Positions 3,744 to 28,343 of a stretch of 64,000 nt of DNA are shown piece by piece. This DNA comes from a virus: positions 64,001-128,000 of the IMG/VR virus record IMGVR_UViG_3300050343_000215; one strand, written 5' to 3'. Each line of letters starts with the position of its first letter. Within the stretch, counting starts at the first letter, position 1. The notes below the pieces were generated by a model, which was not told the origin of the DNA, did not search any database, and saw only the letters and a program-made list of their open reading frames with translations. Made by a program: the position numbers and the translations under genes.

Positions 3744-3760
3744 TAGTAAAAGTATACTAA

Positions 3761-3832
3761 TGCTTGATGACGGGATTGAACCGCCGACCGCCTCGGTGTA
3801 AACGAGATGCTCTACCGCTGAGCTAATCAAGC
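3761..3832 (-). tRNA. trnV: tRNA-Val(TAC)
   Basis: Cloverleaf: GCTTGAT/ATCAAGC acceptor, anticodon loop TT-TAC-AC, GGTTCAATCC T-arm; no encoded CCA. Confidence 0.93.
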
Positions 3833-3835
3833 ATA

Positions 3836-3917
3836 TGGGCAGGGTTGGATTTGAACCAACGTAGGCAGAGCCAGTGGATTTACAGTCCACCTCCATTAAC
3901 CACTCGGACACCCACCC
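3836..3917 (-). tRNA. trnY: tRNA-Tyr(GTA)
   Basis: GTGGA-CT-GTA-AA-TCCAC anticodon arm, long variable arm, GGTTCAAATCC. Confidence 0.93.
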
Positions 3918-3920
3918 AAA

Positions 3921-3992
3921 CTCCCAAGGCTGGATTTGAACCAGCGACCAGCCGATTAACAGTCGGCGGCTCTGCCACTGAGCTACTTGGGA
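3921..3992 (-). tRNA. trnN: tRNA-Asn(GTT)
   Basis: TCCCAAG/CTTGGGA acceptor, loop CT-GTT-AA. Confidence 0.93.
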
Positions 3993-4147
3993 TTGTTTTG
4001 TTCTCTCTTGAGTTTAAAGTACAATTTATAGTATCTATTACACATTTCTCTAAGAATTTTATGGTCTTCAGTAAAACCAAGATTCTTAGTATGTGTACAT
4101 GATCCTTCCATCTCACTAATAAGAAGAAGAATTTCAACTGGTTTCAT
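3983..4147 (-). CDS. Small hypothetical protein (54 aa) inside tRNA cluster
   Basis: Hand translation MKPVEILLLISEMEGSCTHTKNLGF...EQNNPK*; stop lies inside tRNA-Asn. Confidence 0.6.
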   Translation of the reverse strand: MKPVEILLLISEMEGSCTHTKNLGFTEDHKILREMCNRYYKLYFKLKREQNNPK

Positions 4148-4169
4148 AATGTAATGCCTCAAGAGAGGA

Positions 4170-4241
4170 AGCCCTCAGTAGGATTTGAACCAACGACCTA
4201 CGCTTTACAAAAGCGTTGCTCTACCACTGAGCTATAAGGGC
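4170..4241 (-). tRNA. trnT: tRNA-Thr(TGT)
   Basis: GCCCTTA/TGAGGGC acceptor, ACGCT-TT-TGT-AA-AGCGT. Confidence 0.93.
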
Positions 4242-4245
4242 AAGG

Positions 4246-4319
4246 CGACTCAGGTGGGACTTGAACCTACGACCGACTGCTTAGAAGGCAGTTGCTCTAT
4301 CCATCTGAGCTACTGAGTC
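4246..4319 (-). tRNA. trnR: tRNA-Arg(TCT)
   Basis: GACTCAG/CTGAGTC acceptor, ACTGC-CT-TCT-AA-GCAGT. Confidence 0.93.
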
Positions 4320-10538: not shown

Positions 10539-11015
10539 ATGACTTCTCCAAAGACTATTACGATTCTTTGGTATGTCCTGAGTGCGGTGGGTGCAAGTGT
10601 CATACTTGCTCCTGCCCAGGCGGTCCCTGTAGTCCCAAACTTCAGCCAGGGCTCAATGACGAGCCACACAGAGACAACATCAAAGGTGACTGAAACGATT
10701 AACTCTATAGACTATGCAACCGGATGGCAATATTCAGTATCGGGAACAAATGTGACCAATGGGGGGCAATCCCTCAGTCCGAACCCAACAACAAACTCAG
10801 TGATAGTGAATCCATTAGGAGGAACAGAGGGGCAAGTAACAAGTGCCAACTCTGGTCTAGATTTAAATGGACAGAGTTTCACAATCGCAGAACCAGGAGC
10901 AGCATTCCAGTTCACTCAGACCTACATGGGACCGGGTGTAACAAATCAAACTGTGATTCAAAGAACCACAGAGGTTACAAGCATCACAGATACCACAAGT
11001 ATCTTTACCCAGTAA
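10539..11015 (+). CDS. Secreted Thr-rich protein
   Basis: Signal peptide (..LAPAQA), GGAGG RBS, CTAAATA upstream. Confidence 0.75.
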   Translation: MTSPKTITILWYVLSAVGASVILAPAQAVPVVPNFSQGSMTSHTETTSKVTETINSIDYATGWQYSVSGTNVTNGGQSLSPNPTTNSVIVNPLGGTEGQVTSANSGLDLNGQSFTIAEPGAAFQFTQTYMGPGVTNQTVIQRTTEVTSITDTTSIFTQ

Positions 11016-12002
11016 TATCACTTCTTATCGCCTCCCCTGTCAGTGCTGCTGATGTAGGGGGTGTAAGTGCAACAGCAAATCCAATAGCTAATAGTTCAGG
11101 CTCAGTTACGAACCAAGCTATTCAGGTATTACAAGGACCATATATTACTAACCAATATGGTGGTGGTATTGCATGTCAAGGACCGACTGCTAATATCACA
11201 CCATTCATTACTCATGCTCGTAGTCAGAAGGATCCATTTGAACAATACTATATGGAACCTCAGTATGACAACAGAGATTTTAACGGTCAGATGGTAGAAA
11301 CTCAGAAAGTAGTAAAGAACTTTCCTTGGGAACCACATTATGATAATAGAACATATACAAACTCAGAAGGTGAGGGAAGTTCGTGCCTATGAAGATGGTG
11401 CAGACATGACTATCACCGTTATGGAAATGATGGGTGATGGTGTGCCCGATAATCCAGGGTCAGAATTGTGGAAAAAACCAGTAAGGACTGGTGATGCAAT
11501 TAATAACAGTACAAGTCTTGGTTTATCTGCAACACTTTCTTTCCCACTTGATGGTGGAATGCAAGAGCGTTGTAAGACAGCAGCAGATACTCAGATTGCT
11601 TTACAAGGTCAGATGCTTGCTAATAAAAGATTAGACTTTGAGATCGCTAGACTTAAGAATTGTGGTGAACTAATGCAGAGGGGAATCAGTTTCCACCCCA
11701 GAAGTCCTTACTATAAAATATGTGCAGACATTGTAGTTAATAATGTTACTGGTGTTAAGCAACATCGTCACTCTATCCCTTCGGTTTCAGTGCCGACCGT
11801 AGGATCTTTATCGCCCGGTTCCGATCCCGTTGCTCCGCCCTCTTCTGCGACACAGACAGTACCGGGGGAGTCTTACCCCGTAAGGCAGCAATCTTCTTTA
11901 TCACCTTCTTCACAGTCGGTTTCACAACCTTTAACAAAAGATCAGCAAGAGGCTTTGCAAGCAGTGCAGAGGTCGTCGCGACTACAGCAATTGAGGCGGT
12001 AA
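10990..12002 (+). CDS. Secreted protein with one apparent frameshift near 11375; start uncertain
   Basis: Track ORFs 10724..11392 and 11340..12002 join at ggtgagggaagtt (GEEVRAY if one G is removed); signal-like HKYLYPVISLLIASPVSAA. Confidence 0.6.
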
Positions 12003-12579
12003 CAGTTATCATACCTGCTGATGGTATGTTCTGTATAATCTGATCAGGTATATTTAAATTTTCAAATACGGGGAGACATTCTTTTCCTACTGTCTCATAC
12101 CCAGTAATCTTCTTATTGCCCTCTAGGATCTTTCCTACAGGGTTTTTTAATTCTTGTGCTCTACTAGGACACTCTGCTATTGCAGCATCAGTTCTAGGTG
12201 GTGCTGGTGCAGCAGGAGTCTCTGGTGTTTCTGGAGTGTTTGGGATGACTGGTAGAGGTGGAGAAGACTCTGTTGTTATCTTTAACCTACGGGGATCATA
12301 ATCTATTGGATTGAAACTAGGTGTTCCTGCATCACAAAATACTCGGACTCCATCACTATCCTCTTCTTTGAGTGTTTGATTCTCACTACTATCTCTATGC
12401 GACTCAACACATCCAGGTATATTAACAATAGGAACACCCACCTGTGTAGTCACGGGTGGGTAAACTGGTAGTGCCTGCGGAGGATTACTCATCCAATCAG
12501 GCATTACATTAATATTTAAATCACGAATATTACCGATACTAATATCATTATTCGGAATATTAATATTAGGTATGTCCAT
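11773..12579 (-). CDS. Membrane-anchored Pro-rich protein
   Basis: TGATG overlap with upstream gene; C-terminal TM followed by basic tail. Confidence 0.7.
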   Translation of the reverse strand: MDIPNINIPNNDISIGNIRDLNINVMPDWMSNPPQALPVYPPVTTQVGVPIVNIPGCVESHRDSSENQTLKEEDSDGVRVFCDAGTPSFNPIDYDPRRLKITTESSPPLPVIPNTPETPETPAAPAPPRTDAAIAECPSRAQELKNPVGKILEGNKKITGYETVGKECLPVFENLNIPDQIIQNIPSAGMITVTASIAVVATTSALLAKPLADLLLKVVKPTVKKVIKKIAALRGKTPPVLSVSQKRAEQRDRNRAIKILRSALKPKG

Positions 12580-13214
12580 CAGCAATCATTAAACACACTG
12601 CCCACTGTAGAACCAAGTGATGATCCTGCTTTCTGTCCTAGTAACAATGCCCAACCACCTGCTAGCCATCCAACGTATGGGATACCCATTACAGCAGGAA
12701 CAGCAACACCAGCAGCGATAGCACTACCTGCCATGGCACCTTGACTTCGTGCTCCAGCGTCCGCCACTAAACACTCTGCGCTTACACCCCCGGTCTTTCC
12801 CAGTTCTCCTATGTCACCTCCTCCCATGTTACGGGTGCCTTCCATAGTGAATTGATCACTACGATACTCACGACGGTTCTCATATTTCTTGCCGCCAAAG
12901 AAACCACTTTGATTTTTTTGAAGTTCTAGGGATTTCTCCGACTGTAGAATTTTAGGATCGTTTGCACGATACTCAATTTCATATCCATCCTTACCTGCTT
13001 TAATAGTATAGGATGAATAATCTCCACGAGGGATATTAATTGTAGGAACCTGAGGAACTTTTGGTTCTTCTGGTCTATGAATTACATAACCTAACAAACC
13101 AATATGTGCCAGAGCAAAGAGTCCACCTAATGTCAGTGCAATACCTTTAACAGGAGACTTACGTGGTGCTTTCTCAGTAGAATATTTTTGTGCTAACTCT
13201 TCTGGATTTGTCAT
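12579..13214 (-). CDS. Membrane protein with C-terminal glycine-zipper
   Basis: N-terminal TM; GAMAGSAIAAG...GWLAGGW...GSSLGSTVG between two Cys. Confidence 0.7.
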   Translation of the reverse strand: MTNPEELAQKYSTEKAPRKSPVKGIALTLGGLFALAHIGLLGYVIHRPEEPKVPQVPTINIPRGDYSSYTIKAGKDGYEIEYRANDPKILQSEKSLELQKNQSGFFGGKKYENRREYRSDQFTMEGTRNMGGGDIGELGKTGGVSAECLVADAGARSQGAMAGSAIAAGVAVPAVMGIPYVGWLAGGWALLLGQKAGSSLGSTVGSVFNDC

Positions 13215-13471
13215 GGCAATCTAATCCCCGGACCAGTTGTAGATGGTGAGGAAGGAATAGCACCACCAGTAACACTAGGAAGTTCTGGCATCGCTGCATC
13301 CATCATTCCAGGAAGTTGTCCTGCAATTGCTTCTGCTGCTGCACCAGCAACTTGAGATTTGATATTCTCAACAATAGAATCTCTGTTGAGATACACTGCA
13401 GTACCTCCTCCAACAATACCAGCAGTTCCTACAAATGATAGTACTGCCAAAACATTAATTACTTTTTGCAT
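13211..13471 (-). CDS. Single-TM hypothetical protein
   Basis: N-terminal TM, Ala/Gly/Pro tail. Confidence 0.7.
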   Translation of the reverse strand: MQKVINVLAVLSFVGTAGIVGGGTAVYLNRDSIVENIKSQVAGAAAEAIAGQLPGMMDAAMPELPSVTGGAIPSSPSTTGPGIRLP

Positions 13472-13482
13472 TTTATTCTCCG

Positions 13483-22142: not shown

Positions 22143-22166
22143 AAAAAAAGGGGAGTAAGACTCCCC
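22143..22166 (-). terminator. Intrinsic terminator
   Basis: GGGGAGT-CTT-ACTCCCC plus T7. Confidence 0.8.
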
Positions 22167-23390: not shown

Positions 23391-23940
23391 TTAGCTGAGC
23401 ATAATATCTCTAATCTTATCCATAAGTTCTCTACAGTCTCTATCAGAAATAGTTCTAGGCATTCCTGCTCTAAATGAATTAAAGTCAGATTGAACTGCTG
23501 CTGCTCTCATCTTACTAGCAGACATACCCTCAGCACCATCAGCATCAGGATCTCTCTCACCAGCAGATACTACTTCCAAATTTCTAAATGTATATTCAAT
23601 ACCATTATACTTACTAATCATTTTATCATATGATTGTACACGATCTGATCCTGCTACTAGAACACAGTCATGATATGTTCCCTGTAATTGCTGTAATGCT
23701 TGAATAATAGTTTTAATGTGAGGGTCATATATGATATTCCTACTCATCGTAGGAAACATTTTTTGCATTACTTCAGATTTAGTTTTAGAATCTAGAGGAT
23801 TCTTCTTCTTGTCCTGTGTATGTGTAGGGGTAGATAAAGAAATCATCCTGACCAGCAATGTTCTTGACTGACAGTAGAAGTTTCTCATGTCCGATGGTTG
23901 GTGGGTTAAATCTACCCCATGCAAATACTACTCGTTTCAT
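23391..23940 (-). CDS. HIGH-superfamily nucleotidyltransferase (cytidylyltransferase/NMNAT-like); one apparent +1 indel
   Basis: MKRVVFAWGRFNPPTIGHEK then a shift at a C4 run (about 23828) into THTQDKKKNPL...VAGSDR...SAGERDPD...GMSASKMR. Confidence 0.8.
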
Positions 23941-26546
23941 TTATCTCCTGATACCCAGTCTTTGGATACGTTAAAGTTTGCTACACTAAATGACAAACGA
24001 TCCACTAACTTTACAGCATTGGTGCCACCACTGATGGCAACATAACCCTCAGGTGCTGTAACCTCATAACCATCTTCAGTCTTAAGATAAGTACCAATCT
24101 TCTCACCTTTTTCAAGTTTACGAATGAATACTAACTTCGCTTCTTGTAATAACTTATATAGTTGAACCGTACTGTTTAAAGAACTTTTATTCTTTTCAAT
24201 AAACTCTAGACCATCAAACATCTTCTTGAGTTTGGTTGCTTTTGCCTTCGGAGTTTTTACTTTATCAACTGCCTTCTGACATTCAGTCTCAAAATATTTT
24301 GTGAACTCTTTGTAAAAAGCATCAGGTGAAGGAACCGTTCTACCCTGACGAACATAAGCATTAAAGAAGATCTTCAGTCGTGGTCCAATAGTCAACTGAT
24401 CTTTAGCAACAATCTGCTCAGCAACCTCATCTAGAAATGCTCCTGCAGAGCGTACCATTGATGGTGCTTGAGTTCTCAATTGTCCTAGTTTAGTTTTCTC
24501 TCCCGTTGTGAGAAGTGTATCATTACCAAGTGTTCCTATCTCTGCACTTAGAACTAGAACATCTTCAGAAGATTTAAGTTGATTGACATTGAAACCAAAC
24601 GAAGCATTCATAGTACTGACATCATTGCCAGTATATGTGGTATGAAATACTACACCAAGTTTTGCTTTCTTTGCTTTCTCATAAAGATCACTATCTTCTG
24701 GAATAGCATATGTAATAGTATTAGGTTGAAATGTAATACAATTCTTTCCGTCAATCACCTGTTGCTTTTTATCAGTGGTGAATAAAAGATCACCCTGTGC
24801 AACTCCTTTGATACCTAATGCTGGAAGATATTTAAGTGATGCTTTTAGTTTTTCAACCAACCCTGCAGCATGACCATGATTCCTATCAATATCAGAATCA
24901 GCGTAGTTAATCTTGGCGTCCTTATTGAAAACTGATTTAGTTCCTACAAAGAAGTTATCAGTACCAGGATAGATACCACAAAATATAGCAGGTGCTCCAT
25001 CCCACTTTGTGGTAATCTTAAATGCATTAGACCCACCAGTGGTAAATGTTTTTGCCAGCAAATCTAAAAATTTAAATGCATCAGTAGCACCTTCCTTTCC
25101 ATCAAGTAAAATGCTGTCCTCTAAATGTTCTAAGTGAGTGTTCTTGCTCATCCCGATGTAGTCCTCCAGACCAGAACGTTTCTCAACATAATTACGGATT
25201 GCTTTAGGAACACCACCAGTTCCTTTCTCCATCTTAAACCGGAACTGGACTAACTCATACTTCTTATTATCATTTTCATTAGTACCAGAGACTCTAACTG
25301 TAGGTAAACCGCTAGCACCTGTAACATAATCAGAACTTAATTTAAGGTTAGCAGGAACGTCTGCATCAGGGAATCCTACCAAAGCAACTTTTAATTTTTT
25401 AAAATCATATCTGTGGAATGTATCACCTTTGATCTCAACCAGTGCAACGTTCTCTTCTTTATATGTTGCAAAATTATCTAATACCTCAACAAAATTTTCC
25501 AACCATACTTTATTATTAAACTTTTGCTGTAATTGACCATCAGCCCATGTGTAAACTCTCCTCATAGTTTCAGCAGCAACCTCCTCCGTGGTTCCCCTCA
25601 TCTCAGCAGAGTCAGCATAGATCTGCTGAACAATACTAGATATAGATGGTTTGCTGCCAAGGATCTTACCCCACAAATTATCCATTTTATCAAGAGTCCA
25701 TCCACCAACTTGAGCAAACTGATCAACATCTTTCTTCAATGAGATTTGAGTCAATCGCAACTGTGTACCATTAACAGTACCGGGAATAGAAATGTTCTTA
25801 GAGTTATTGATGATAAGATTCACATCAACTTTTGTTCCTGTCTCATCACCAATACCATCAGCGATCACATCAATATAATCTTTCTTACCATTGCGATACA
25901 TCATCAGTGCCGCAGTATTAATCTCCTGTGAATTTGCATACGAAATACATGCTGGCATTAATTCCTTCAATGCCACATACTCATCAGGATCACTGGTGAA
26001 CAGCATATCCATATTTGCTGCTGTAAGGTTTACAACTACCTTAACATCATCAAACAAAAGTTTTCTCATCTTAGGATGAGGAGCATTAGGTGACTGGAAT
26101 ATCTTACCTGACGAAGTTCCAGATCTTGTAGGTTTAACTGCATTCAAAACCTTAACGAGATCTTGTTCTGTAATTCTTTTATTCTTATTTAAAAATCTTG
26201 CAGTAATAGCAAATGCCAGAATACCTTCCGCTACGTTTCCAAGGTTATACTTCTTTCTGGGACTTCCTACACTTACATTTACCTTAAGAATTGCACCTAA
26301 TGAAATCTCACCACCACCAAGTTTAGGGAAAGAATATCCTCTACCCTTCTTAAATTGTTCCATACCAATTTGAGCATTGGCATCAAAACTATTAGCGTTC
26401 TTTAAAAACCCCCAACGCTTGTCACTCTTGTCTATAGTTACATGTCCATCCTTAGTAAGAAGTGCGACATCATTCCGAACTTTCTCAGCAAAAGTTTTCC
26501 AATAGTGAGTACCATTGGATGCTTTTTTGAATTCGGCAATACCCAT
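23937..26546 (-). CDS. Fusion: N-terminal PD-(D/E)XK-like domain plus C-terminal Rnl1-like covalent nucleotidyltransferase (ligase) domain
   Basis: AEG...TKVDV...ISLK in N-half; KWDG, QGDLLF, EGYVA, VKL in C-half starting MSKNTHLEHLED (25151). Confidence 0.6.
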   Translation of the reverse strand: MGIAEFKKASNGTHYWKTFAEKVRNDVALLTKDGHVTIDKSDKRWGFLKNANSFDANAQIGMEQFKKGRGYSFPKLGGGEISLGAILKVNVSVGSPRKKYNLGNVAEGILAFAITARFLNKNKRITEQDLVKVLNAVKPTRSGTSSGKIFQSPNAPHPKMRKLLFDDVKVVVNLTAANMDMLFTSDPDEYVALKELMPACISYANSQEINTAALMMYRNGKKDYIDVIADGIGDETGTKVDVNLIINNSKNISIPGTVNGTQLRLTQISLKKDVDQFAQVGGWTLDKMDNLWGKILGSKPSISSIVQQIYADSAEMRGTTEEVAAETMRRVYTWADGQLQQKFNNKVWLENFVEVLDNFATYKEENVALVEIKGDTFHRYDFKKLKVALVGFPDADVPANLKLSSDYVTGASGLPTVRVSGTNENDNKKYELVQFRFKMEKGTGGVPKAIRNYVEKRSGLEDYIGMSKNTHLEHLEDSILLDGKEGATDAFKFLDLLAKTFTTGGSNAFKITTKWDGAPAIFCGIYPGTDNFFVGTKSVFNKDAKINYADSDIDRNHGHAAGLVEKLKASLKYLPALGIKGVAQGDLLFTTDKKQQVIDGKNCITFQPNTITYAIPEDSDLYEKAKKAKLGVVFHTTYTGNDVSTMNASFGFNVNQLKSSEDVLVLSAEIGTLGNDTLLTTGEKTKLGQLRTQAPSMVRSAGAFLDEVAEQIVAKDQLTIGPRLKIFFNAYVRQGRTVPSPDAFYKEFTKYFETECQKAVDKVKTPKAKATKLKKMFDGLEFIEKNKSSLNSTVQLYKLLQEAKLVFIRKLEKGEKIGTYLKTEDGYEVTAPEGYVAISGGTNAVKLVDRLSFSVANFNVSKDWVSGDK

Positions 26547-26547
26547 T

Positions 26548-26574
26548 AAAAAACCCCCTTACGGGGGTATTTAT
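26548..26574 (-). terminator. Terminator with overlapping late promoter ATAAATA
   Basis: ACCCCC-GTAA-GGGGGT plus T run immediately before ATG 26546. Confidence 0.65.
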
Positions 26575-26972
26575 TAGAGATCTCCTGCTACTCGGTTTTC
26601 CGAGCGTTCAATACTAAATGTTCCTTCGGGGTAACGAGAACTCAGTTTTTCAAAATTCATCTGAATGATTTCCTCAAGCGAAATGTTGAGACCAATACAT
26701 GCTTGCATAACATACCACATGATGTCTCCAAGTTCACGTTTCAGATGAAACATTTTCATATCAACAGGTTTACCCTGGAAAACAATCTTCTTCACAATCT
26801 CAGTAAACTCACCTGCCTCAGCAGACATTCCTACAGCAGCAGTAAGCAATCGCTCGGGAGGAAAACCTTCTTTTGTAAGTTGATAACAACGATAGTGAAT
26901 TCAGTGGATCTTTGCTAGGTTCCTGTGAGGTAACCTCATTAACAAACTCGGCATACTTTTTTGATCAATCAT
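26574..26972 (-). CDS. mazG: MazG-like nucleotide pyrophosphohydrolase (frameshifted near 26880-26910)
   Basis: EAGEFTEIVKK...RELGDIMWY...N..KL..RY; N-terminus MIDQKKYAEFVNEVTS in another frame. Confidence 0.8.
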
Positions 26973-28343
26973 ACTTTAAATCTTGAAATGTTTTCTTTGC
27001 TGTGAACTTTTTAACTAGATCAATTTGCTGTTCTTGACCAGAATCAACTATGTCTTCTTGAGCAGACTCCTCTACATCATACAACCTCATCTTTGATCTG
27101 TCAATACCTATACAAATCTTTTGTATGTATTGGTATCATTATATCTATTCTTTAGTTGTTTGACCATAAGTTGATTCATGCCCTCAAGCTCCTCCGTACT
27201 AATAAGGGCAAACATAAGATCAGCAGTAGCAGGGAGGCCAAAGGATTCACTAGTATCAGTAAGGTCAACATCAGTGCTACCAAAACCTGAACGAGTGGTC
27301 TGCGTAGCACTGACAATAGGAACGTTACACTCCACAGCAAAACCCCTAAGTTCTTCTGCGATTGCTTTAACGTAGGTGTAGGAGTTAACAATGCTCCCTT
27401 TATATCTCTGGGAAGCACAGATATTGAGGTAATCCACAAAGATAATATTGGGTTTAATGCTCCGCTTAAGAGCAAGATCAGAAACAAGAGACTTAAAATG
27501 TCCAACATGTGCAGATGCCGTAGGATATTCTTTAATGATTAATTTACCTTAGTCTTCTTAGAAAGTTTGCAATCTTCTTTTCAAACATTACCTCAGGAAG
27601 ATCTCCAAGTTGTTGAATAGGAACATTAAGTAGATTGGCGTCAATTCGTTCTGCGATCTTCTCTTCTGCCATCTCCAATGTAATGTAAAGAACATTTTTA
27701 CCTTGAAGTAAGGACAGCAGCAGCACAGTGACACATAAACAAAGACTTACCAACACCTGTGCCAGCAAGTGCAACGTTAATGACTTTTGTTAACCAGACC
27801 ACCCTTTGTAATCTTATTAAAGAGCGAAAGATCAAATGGAACTTTATCTTCTTTTCTGTGATAATACTCGTAACGATGTTCATAGTCTTCTATGTAGTCG
27901 TGTCCGATATGATCATCAAATGAAACTGCAAGAGCTTCCTGTAGAATTGAGGGGATCGCATCTTCAGTTCTCTTCTCATCCTGACCATCAGCAATCTTAA
28001 CACTATCTAATAGTGCCAAGTAAACTGCACGTTGCTTACACCATTTCTCAGTGGAATCTAACAACCACTGAGAGTCAACTTCAGTATTGTCAATGTTCTG
28101 AATTTTAACCTGTAACTCTTTGTATGAATCTTCATTCAGATCTTTACGATTCTCTACCTCAATAGTAAGAACTTCTTTAGTTGGAGTCTGACCATAAGTC
28201 ACGATAAAGTTGTTAATGATATCAAACAAAATCTTATCCGAATAATCGTTAAAGTATTCTGGTTTAATATAAGGAATTACCTTACGAACATAAGTGTCAT
28301 CACCAACTAAGTTCTTGATAATAGTGCTTTCAATTGCTTCCAT
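26965..28343 (-). CDS. gp41: Replicative helicase gp41, split by about four frameshifts (likely sequence errors)
   Basis: Pieces: MEAIESTII..., ALAGTGVGKS (Walker A), ITLEMAEEKI, VDYLNI, SATQTTRSG, QLKNRY, RSKMRLYDVE. Confidence 0.9.

Follow-up and report, generated by a model that had tools for sequence, protein, structure and literature searches.

DUF6267 of T4-like cyanophages, a candidate family of ligase-type covalent nucleotidyltransferases

Identity and distribution

The protein family DUF6267 (PF19782) is encoded on the minus strand of a 64,000-nucleotide stretch of viral DNA, positions 64,001 to 128,000 of the IMG/VR record IMGVR_UViG_3300050343_000215 (here the window). The source record is a 177.7 kb, about 95%-complete genome of a T4-like cyanomyovirus. 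The gene product of 404 amino acids (aa) is probably a ligase-type enzyme, which forms a lysyl-nucleoside monophosphate (lysyl-NMP) and acts on polynucleotide ends. Invariant motif residues and a modelled fold point to a divergent, previously unannotated family of covalent (lysine) nucleotidyltransferases, with a fold nearest to the ATP-dependent RNA ligases. A preliminary description of the DNA, made from the sequence, had placed the protein in this superfamily; conservation, fold and register, all computational, now support this placement.

The 404-aa translation (window:23940-25151:-) begins with MSKNTHLEHLED and matches DUF6267 over profile positions 1-376 of 376 (E 2.5e-127, 425.7 bits, cut-off 27), corresponding to residues 469-862 of a longer open reading frame (ORF) in the window. 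In PHROGs it is assigned to phrog_455. Both phrog_455 and PF19782 carry the label 'unknown function'. The preliminary description had referred to the family only as a DUF and had quoted motif strings for the 404-aa unit; the Pfam match supplies the family, and all strings are present on the minus strand in the order given there. Matches to DUF6267 were obtained in 467 phage records and in 2,449 metagenome cluster representatives, and almost every T4-like marine cyanophage carries it as a core gene. In UniProt the viral homologues are entered as 'uncharacterized' or, after a fused domain, as 'cytidyltransferase-like domain-containing', and no source searched calls the family a ligase. No mention of DUF6267 or PF19782 was found in the literature searched, and it is not described in comparative surveys that treat phage ligases and NAD systems broadly. 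Within a known superfamily, DUF6267 is rated as a new family whose architecture is likewise new.

Catalytic motifs and fold

Conservation was assessed in an alignment of 103 DUF6267 representatives (34-66% identity). Invariant in 103/103 are H9, K49, D51, G52, P54, K72, D121, Y148, H170, E368, G369, K381 and F388. These include the lysine, aspartate and glycine of the K-x-D-G signature in motif I. Motifs III, IIIa, IV and V follow in order, each on a predicted beta-strand as in ligases (Table 1). The catalytic residues stay invariant when the short forms of about 300 aa from S-RIM2 and ACG-2014f are added, and they are also kept in the proteins of a pelagiphage, a Methylophilales phage, a Stenotrophomonas phage and C48C1 and in a fused 854-aa form. 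Conservation of the motif residues across homologues, which the preliminary description had named as a check, is thus borne out. Two motifs depart from the usual pattern, motif III with Asp where Glu is expected and motif V with a lone Lys. As judged from the sequence, the motif set amounts to far more than chance.

An AlphaFold2 model of the protein (predicted local distance difference test, pLDDT, 94.4; predicted template modelling score, pTM, 0.90) shows the adenylyltransferase (nucleotidyltransferase, NTase) domain fold. The comparison with ligase structures, which the preliminary description had proposed, placed RNA ligases at the top. Ligases make up 49 of the best 50 rows; no capping enzyme appears in the best 50 rows of either structural list, which is weak evidence by absence. 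RNA ligases, among them the tRNA ligases Trl1 and T4 Rnl1, are the nearest structures, and the highest fold similarity is to the Rnl2/Rnl5 group. RNA ligases score 1-3 Z units above DNA ligases. The alignments extend over model residues 3-395; therefore, the catalytic domain is split by an insert.

The alignment with T4 Rnl1 pairs model residues 3..394 with chain residues 52..252. With offsets counted from either end of the alignment, and to within one residue, K49 corresponds to Rnl1 K99, E368 to E227 and K381 to K240. The three Rnl1 residues were checked in the T4 sequence and are invariant in 26 Rnl1 homologues. K72 lies 23 residues past K49, and in T4 Rnl1 K119 lies 20 residues past K99. 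Profiles of Rnl1 (n=26) and Rnl2 (n=20), built from T4 and IMG/VR relatives, were compared with DUF6267 by hhalign. A local match of motifs IV-V to the Rnl1 profile (E 0.0017) sets E368-G369 on Rnl1 E227-G228 and pairs PEGYVAISGGTNAVKL with IEGYVAVMKDGSHFKI; the spacing from Glu to Lys is 13 residues in both. Apart from this match, no significance was reached against Rnl1 or Rnl2 with DUF6267 whole, split or with the insert removed, and the Rnl2 profile did not match the DUF6267 alignment significantly.

Other searches were negative. No ligase family of Pfam matches the protein, PF01068, PF09511 and PF09414 included. Sequence searches of solved structures yielded low-complexity noise only, whether the query was the single protein or the 103-sequence profile, and a structure search of the ESM Atlas returned the DUF6267 family alone. 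A feature search gave an RNA_ligase cluster at a score of 0.75, a lead only.

Domain architecture and comparison with known ligases

Between motifs IIIa and IV the model contains a helical domain of about 145 residues with helices at 216-249, 255-268, 276-297, 301-320 and 322-348, in agreement with the long helical insert before motif IV described previously. The insert is variable and mostly gone from the short forms, in which all catalytic residues are retained. The short forms (L096:3007-3903 in S-RIM2 and L095:2929-3834 in ACG-2014f) lack most of the insert and a beta-hairpin. The C-terminus of DUF6267 is reached 23 residues past K381, and only two short helices are modelled there; therefore, no OB-fold domain and no motif VI follow motif V. 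Among known ligases, an OB domain is missing after motif V only in RNA ligases that carry family-specific accessory domains. Because of the missing OB domain and the ranking of the structural neighbours, DUF6267 would resemble an RNA ligase or a nick-sealing ligase more than a replicative DNA ligase, a resemblance that is not decisive.

The differences from the known groups are considerable. T4 Rnl1 (gp63) has its helical domain after motif V, whereas that of DUF6267 precedes motif IV. The Pfam Rnl1 model (PF09511) does not match, and the overall profile comparison is not significant. Motif III has Asp instead of Glu, motif V has a single lysine, and the N-terminal HLEHLED element of DUF6267 is not seen in T4 Rnl1. 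The gene partners differ as well, a protein of predicted nuclease fold and a HIGH nucleotidyltransferase for DUF6267 and Pnkp for T4 Rnl1. Within the Rnl5/Rnl2 group, Naegleria gruberi Rnl5 has an N-terminal OB-like domain and Rnl2 (T4 Rnl2, trypanosome REL1) a C-terminal domain, whereas DUF6267 has neither; only DUF6267 has the inserted helical domain, and PF09414 is unmatched. In comparison with the ATP-dependent DNA ligases (T4 gp30, Chlorella virus, T7, human LigI/III/IV), DUF6267 lacks the OB domain, motif VI and a DNA-binding domain, and these enzymes score structurally below the RNA ligases.

Gene boundary

In the window, no stop codon lies upstream of the DUF6267 ATG, and an 869-aa ORF extends from 26546 to 23940. 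This uninterrupted frame could be taken for a natural nuclease-ligase fusion protein, a reading that is extremely improbable. The junction reads ATC GGG ATG AGC in the window and ATC GGA TGA GCA in three contigs from three different samples (L008, L009, L010), in which the two genes share an ATGA stop/start overlap. The upstream 465-aa protein of these contigs is 100% identical to the N-terminal half of the window's ORF. In L008 DUF6267 is a separate gene, identical to that of the window in 1215/1215 bases. One extra G in the G-run is the sole difference from L008 at the junction. More distant relatives (87% identity) likewise have two genes with the ATGA overlap. None of 37 longer DUF6267 representatives has the window's N-terminal domain, and the nearest homologues of the 404-aa protein are all between 389 and 406 aa long (120/120). 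The same record has other defects, namely an inserted base at 23830 and an indel-rich gp41/MazG stretch between 100%-identical DNA. Because of the GG contigs, the other indels in the record, the lengths of the homologues and the lack of fused relatives, the 869-aa fusion is regarded, on sequence grounds, as an assembly error or a private defect, and the 404-aa unit as the real gene. The nuclease-ligase fusion was rejected, as the extra G at 25152-25154 is absent from L008, L009 and L010.

The defects were located by comparison with L008. One extra C at window position 23830 shifts the frame of the cytidylyltransferase-like gene. Window positions 26750-27780, covering the gp41 C-terminus and the MazG N-terminus, are 87-88% identical to L008 with dozens of indels of 1-3 bases, and the flanks (UvsX on one side, the cassette on the other) are 99.9-100% identical. 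In the window, the gp41 sequence falls into four or more reading frames, and the first ~28 codons of MazG are missing. This stretch looks mis-assembled or chimeric rather than biological. Many DUF6267 proteins, among them P0180, P0188, P0198 and P0203, carry N-terminal extensions of 400-670 aa without a Pfam match. These extensions are unrelated to the window's upstream 465-aa protein. Such extensions may be further fusion partners or read-through artefacts.

Gene neighbourhood

The gene order is gp43 - UvsX - gp41 - MazG - 465-aa gene - DUF6267 - cytidylyltransferase-like gene. In cyanophages, in pelagiphage HTVC008M and in Methylophilales phage Melnitz, the cassette comes after the replication genes. 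The features are listed in Table 1.

Table 1. Features of the DUF6267 cassette in the window.
Feature	Position	Strand	Remarks
DUF6267 coding sequence, 404 aa	23940..25151	minus	Stop codon 23937-23939; probable ligase-type covalent nucleotidyltransferase
N-terminal HLEHLED, residues 6-12	25116..25136	minus	H6, H9, E11, D12 invariant or nearly so
Motif I KITTKWDGA, residues 45-53	24993..25019	minus	K49, predicted nucleotidyl-accepting lysine
Motif Ia-like FVGTK, residues 68-72	24936..24950	minus	K72 invariant
Motif III AQGDLLF, residues 118-124	24780..24800	minus	D121 invariant; strand 117-124
Motif IIIa-like GVVFH, residues 166-170	24642..24656	minus	H170 invariant; strand 165-174
Helical domain, about residues 206-350	24102..24536	minus	Between motifs IIIa and IV; variable
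Motif IV PEGYVAI, residues 367-373	24033..24053	minus	E368 and G369 invariant
Motif V AVKLVDR (VKL, residues 380-382)	23997..24017	minus	K381 invariant; D384 and R385 nearly so
GGG run fusing both ORFs	25152..25154	minus	GG in three contigs with identical upstream protein
Upstream 465-aa gene, phrog_3560	25152..26546	minus	Predicted restriction-endonuclease (PD-(D/E)XK) fold
HIGH-type nucleotidyltransferase (CTP_transf_like, PF01467)	23391..23940	minus	Frameshifted in window (extra C at 23830)
Late-promoter-like TAATAAATA, then terminator hairpin	26553..26576	minus	Predicted from sequence; overlaps MazG stop
Next strong terminator-like hairpin downstream	22150..22166	minus	Predicted from sequence

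The upstream 465-aa protein has the invariant residues E107, D241, S269-L-K271 and Q279. Compared with the type II restriction endonucleases MspI and HinP1I, it is twice as long, has extra N- and C-terminal domains and gives modest scores. The restriction-endonuclease fold is predicted, and a nuclease activity is putative. A hidden Markov model of this protein family did not match the upstream genes of other lineages. An xSLK motif, often with K-x-D before it, occurs in 33/47 of these genes and in 33/158 control ORFs. A predicted complex of the upstream protein and DUF6267 scored 0.00, which is uninformative either way. In ACG-2014f, the short DUF6267 is distant from the nuclease-fold gene, which adjoins a Dam methylase there.

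The downstream HIGH nucleotidyltransferase comprises 182 aa in relatives with an intact gene (L004:6603-7151, PF01467 E 1e-5, 26.2 bits, cut-off 21). It carries the motif GRFxPPTIGH, which contains the (H/T)xGH signature of CTP_transf_like. Models of NMNAT and PPAT gave weak matches far below the cut-off (NMNAT-like E 1.8e-4), and no solved close relative was found. Fusions of DUF6267 and the HIGH nucleotidyltransferase exist in both orders (P0159, P0250, P0201 and an S-PM2 entry). The HIGH motif was detected downstream of DUF6267 at 35/64 metagenomic loci and in 0/68 control regions. This link appears to be the best-supported functional association of DUF6267. At L089-L092, from pelagiphage, Methylophilales phage and related genomes, the transferase has 447-722 aa and also carries DUF5824, a domain of unknown function.

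Before the cassette, TAATAAATA resembles a T4-type late promoter and provides the only basis for the term 'late-expressed' in the preliminary description. A GC-rich hairpin and a T-run follow directly after it, and the T-run stops one base short of the first ATG of the cassette. It is unusual for a promoter-like motif to lie upstream of a terminator. The next strong hairpin downstream is likely the end of the cassette transcription unit.

In the virion proteome of phage S-SZBM1, the cytidylyltransferase SSZBM1_140 and the 457-aa hypothetical protein 139 have been detected (PMC9146016); the cassette locus is L094 (OL473597) 10989-13478. A virion location of DUF6267 found no support, as the gene at its position (SSZBM1_141) is not among the S-SZBM1 virion proteins (PMC9146016). 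Part of the cassette may be packaged in virions.

Proposed mechanism

The reaction proposed here is deduced from the covalent nucleotidyltransferase superfamily. Initially, K49 would attack a nucleotide, most probably ATP (NAD+ is possible), at the alpha-phosphate to yield the enzyme-lysyl-NMP. D121, H170, E368 and K381 would hold the nucleotide and a metal. The NMP would then be handed to the 5'-phosphate end of a polynucleotide, and attack by a 3'-OH would seal the strand. The helical insert and HLEHLED probably replace the OB domain in the handling of substrate and leaving group. In the first step, HLEHLED may help to handle the metal or the pyrophosphate. The enzyme would operate in a cassette with the upstream protein of predicted restriction-endonuclease fold and the downstream HIGH nucleotidyltransferase. 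Judged by architecture and structural neighbours, the substrate would more likely be RNA or a duplex nick.

Alternative substrates and functions

Readings of the substrate as RNA repair, DNA sealing or non-ligase transfer partly nest within the proposed ligase-type activity. RNA repair in the manner of T4 Rnl1, with resealing of tRNAs and other RNAs after cleavage by host anticodon nucleases or further defence RNases, is possible but rather unlikely. It agrees with the RNA ligases, Trl1 and T4 Rnl1 included, as best structural neighbours, with motifs IV-V nearest to Rnl1, with a helical accessory domain in place of the OB domain as in Rnl1 and Trl1, and with the tRNA genes of the genome itself. 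The expected end-healing partner was not found, since no Pnkp-like kinase scored above the family cut-off in the window's genome, and in place of healing enzymes the conserved cassette holds a protein of predicted DNA-endonuclease fold and a HIGH nucleotidyltransferase. In the window, 20 kb separate the cassette from the tRNA cluster, which consists of five genes (Val, Tyr, Asn, Thr, Arg) at window positions 3760-4319 on the minus strand. A lysyl-NMP formed without strand joining, by a capping-type or end-adenylylating enzyme or with NMP transfer to a small molecule or a protein, is very unlikely. The transfer to a small molecule or a protein would belong to a pathway in which the fused HIGH nucleotidyltransferase also takes part. 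Tight linkage to this second nucleotidyltransferase with fusions in both orders, a motif V without a second lysine and the lack of a nucleic-acid-binding OB domain speak for it; the predominance of ligases in the structural lists, weakly the absence of capping enzymes there, and a residue set that agrees with ligases throughout speak for the ligase-type enzyme.

It has been stated that cyanomyoviruses are without homologues of g30 and rnh 'or have distant homologues not yet identified' (Clokie et al., 2010, PMC2984593). DUF6267 as this missing replicative DNA ligase of T4-like cyanophages, which would mature Okazaki fragments together with the nuclease-fold protein, is unlikely. The pair would replace T4 gp30 and RNase H, and the HIGH nucleotidyltransferase may supply a cofactor, e.g. 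NAD+ from nicotinamide mononucleotide (NMN), for which its weak NMNAT-like scores far below the cut-off are the sign. Besides the statement on absent g30 and rnh, the position of the cassette directly after gp43-UvsX-gp41-MazG in the window and its relatives favors this function. The window's 95%-complete genome has no ligase of PF01068, PF01653 or PF09414 and no member of the FEN/RNase H families. S-MbCM7, ACG-2014f, HTVC008M, Melnitz and C48C1 have DUF6267 and lack PF01068; PF01653 is absent from S-MbCM7, HTVC008M, Melnitz and C48C1, the four examined for it. Conversely, gp30 (PF01068) is present and DUF6267 absent in T4 and a KVP40-sized phage. Against a replicative DNA ligase, Stenotrophomonas phage DLP6 carries DUF6267 and a canonical ATP-dependent DNA ligase together; therefore, the two are not strictly alternative, and strict mutual exclusion was ruled out. 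DUF6267 also has no OB or DNA-binding domain and the known OB-less ligases are RNA ligases, which score above the DNA ligases. Furthermore, the motif before the cassette is late-promoter-like and not early or middle, and the census of ligase and DUF6267 comprises seven genomes only. A still wider proposal, quite unlikely, makes DUF6267 a new class of OB-less polynucleotide ligase and the missing DNA ligase of the Kyanoviridae (here T4-like cyanophages, pelagiphages and relatives) within a three-part machine. The restriction-endonuclease-fold partner would recognise or process a nick or flap, and the HIGH adenylyltransferase would make or regenerate the ligase cofactor, e.g. NAD+ from NMN and ATP.

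Significance

Few viruses of the ocean are as abundant as the T4-like cyanophages. A ligase-type identity of DUF6267 gives one of their core genes a testable activity and makes the question of the missing ligase directly testable. The ligase/capping superfamily is a source of laboratory reagents. DUF6267 would add a new architecture to this well-studied superfamily, in which the catalytic domain encloses a helical domain, the OB fold is missing and there is a link to a second nucleotidyltransferase. Abundant marine viruses thought to carry no ligase thus have, in DUF6267, a predicted ligase fold with invariant catalytic residues. If the three-part machine were real, the replication of these highly abundant ocean viruses would be independent of the host ligase and of host NAD+ levels.

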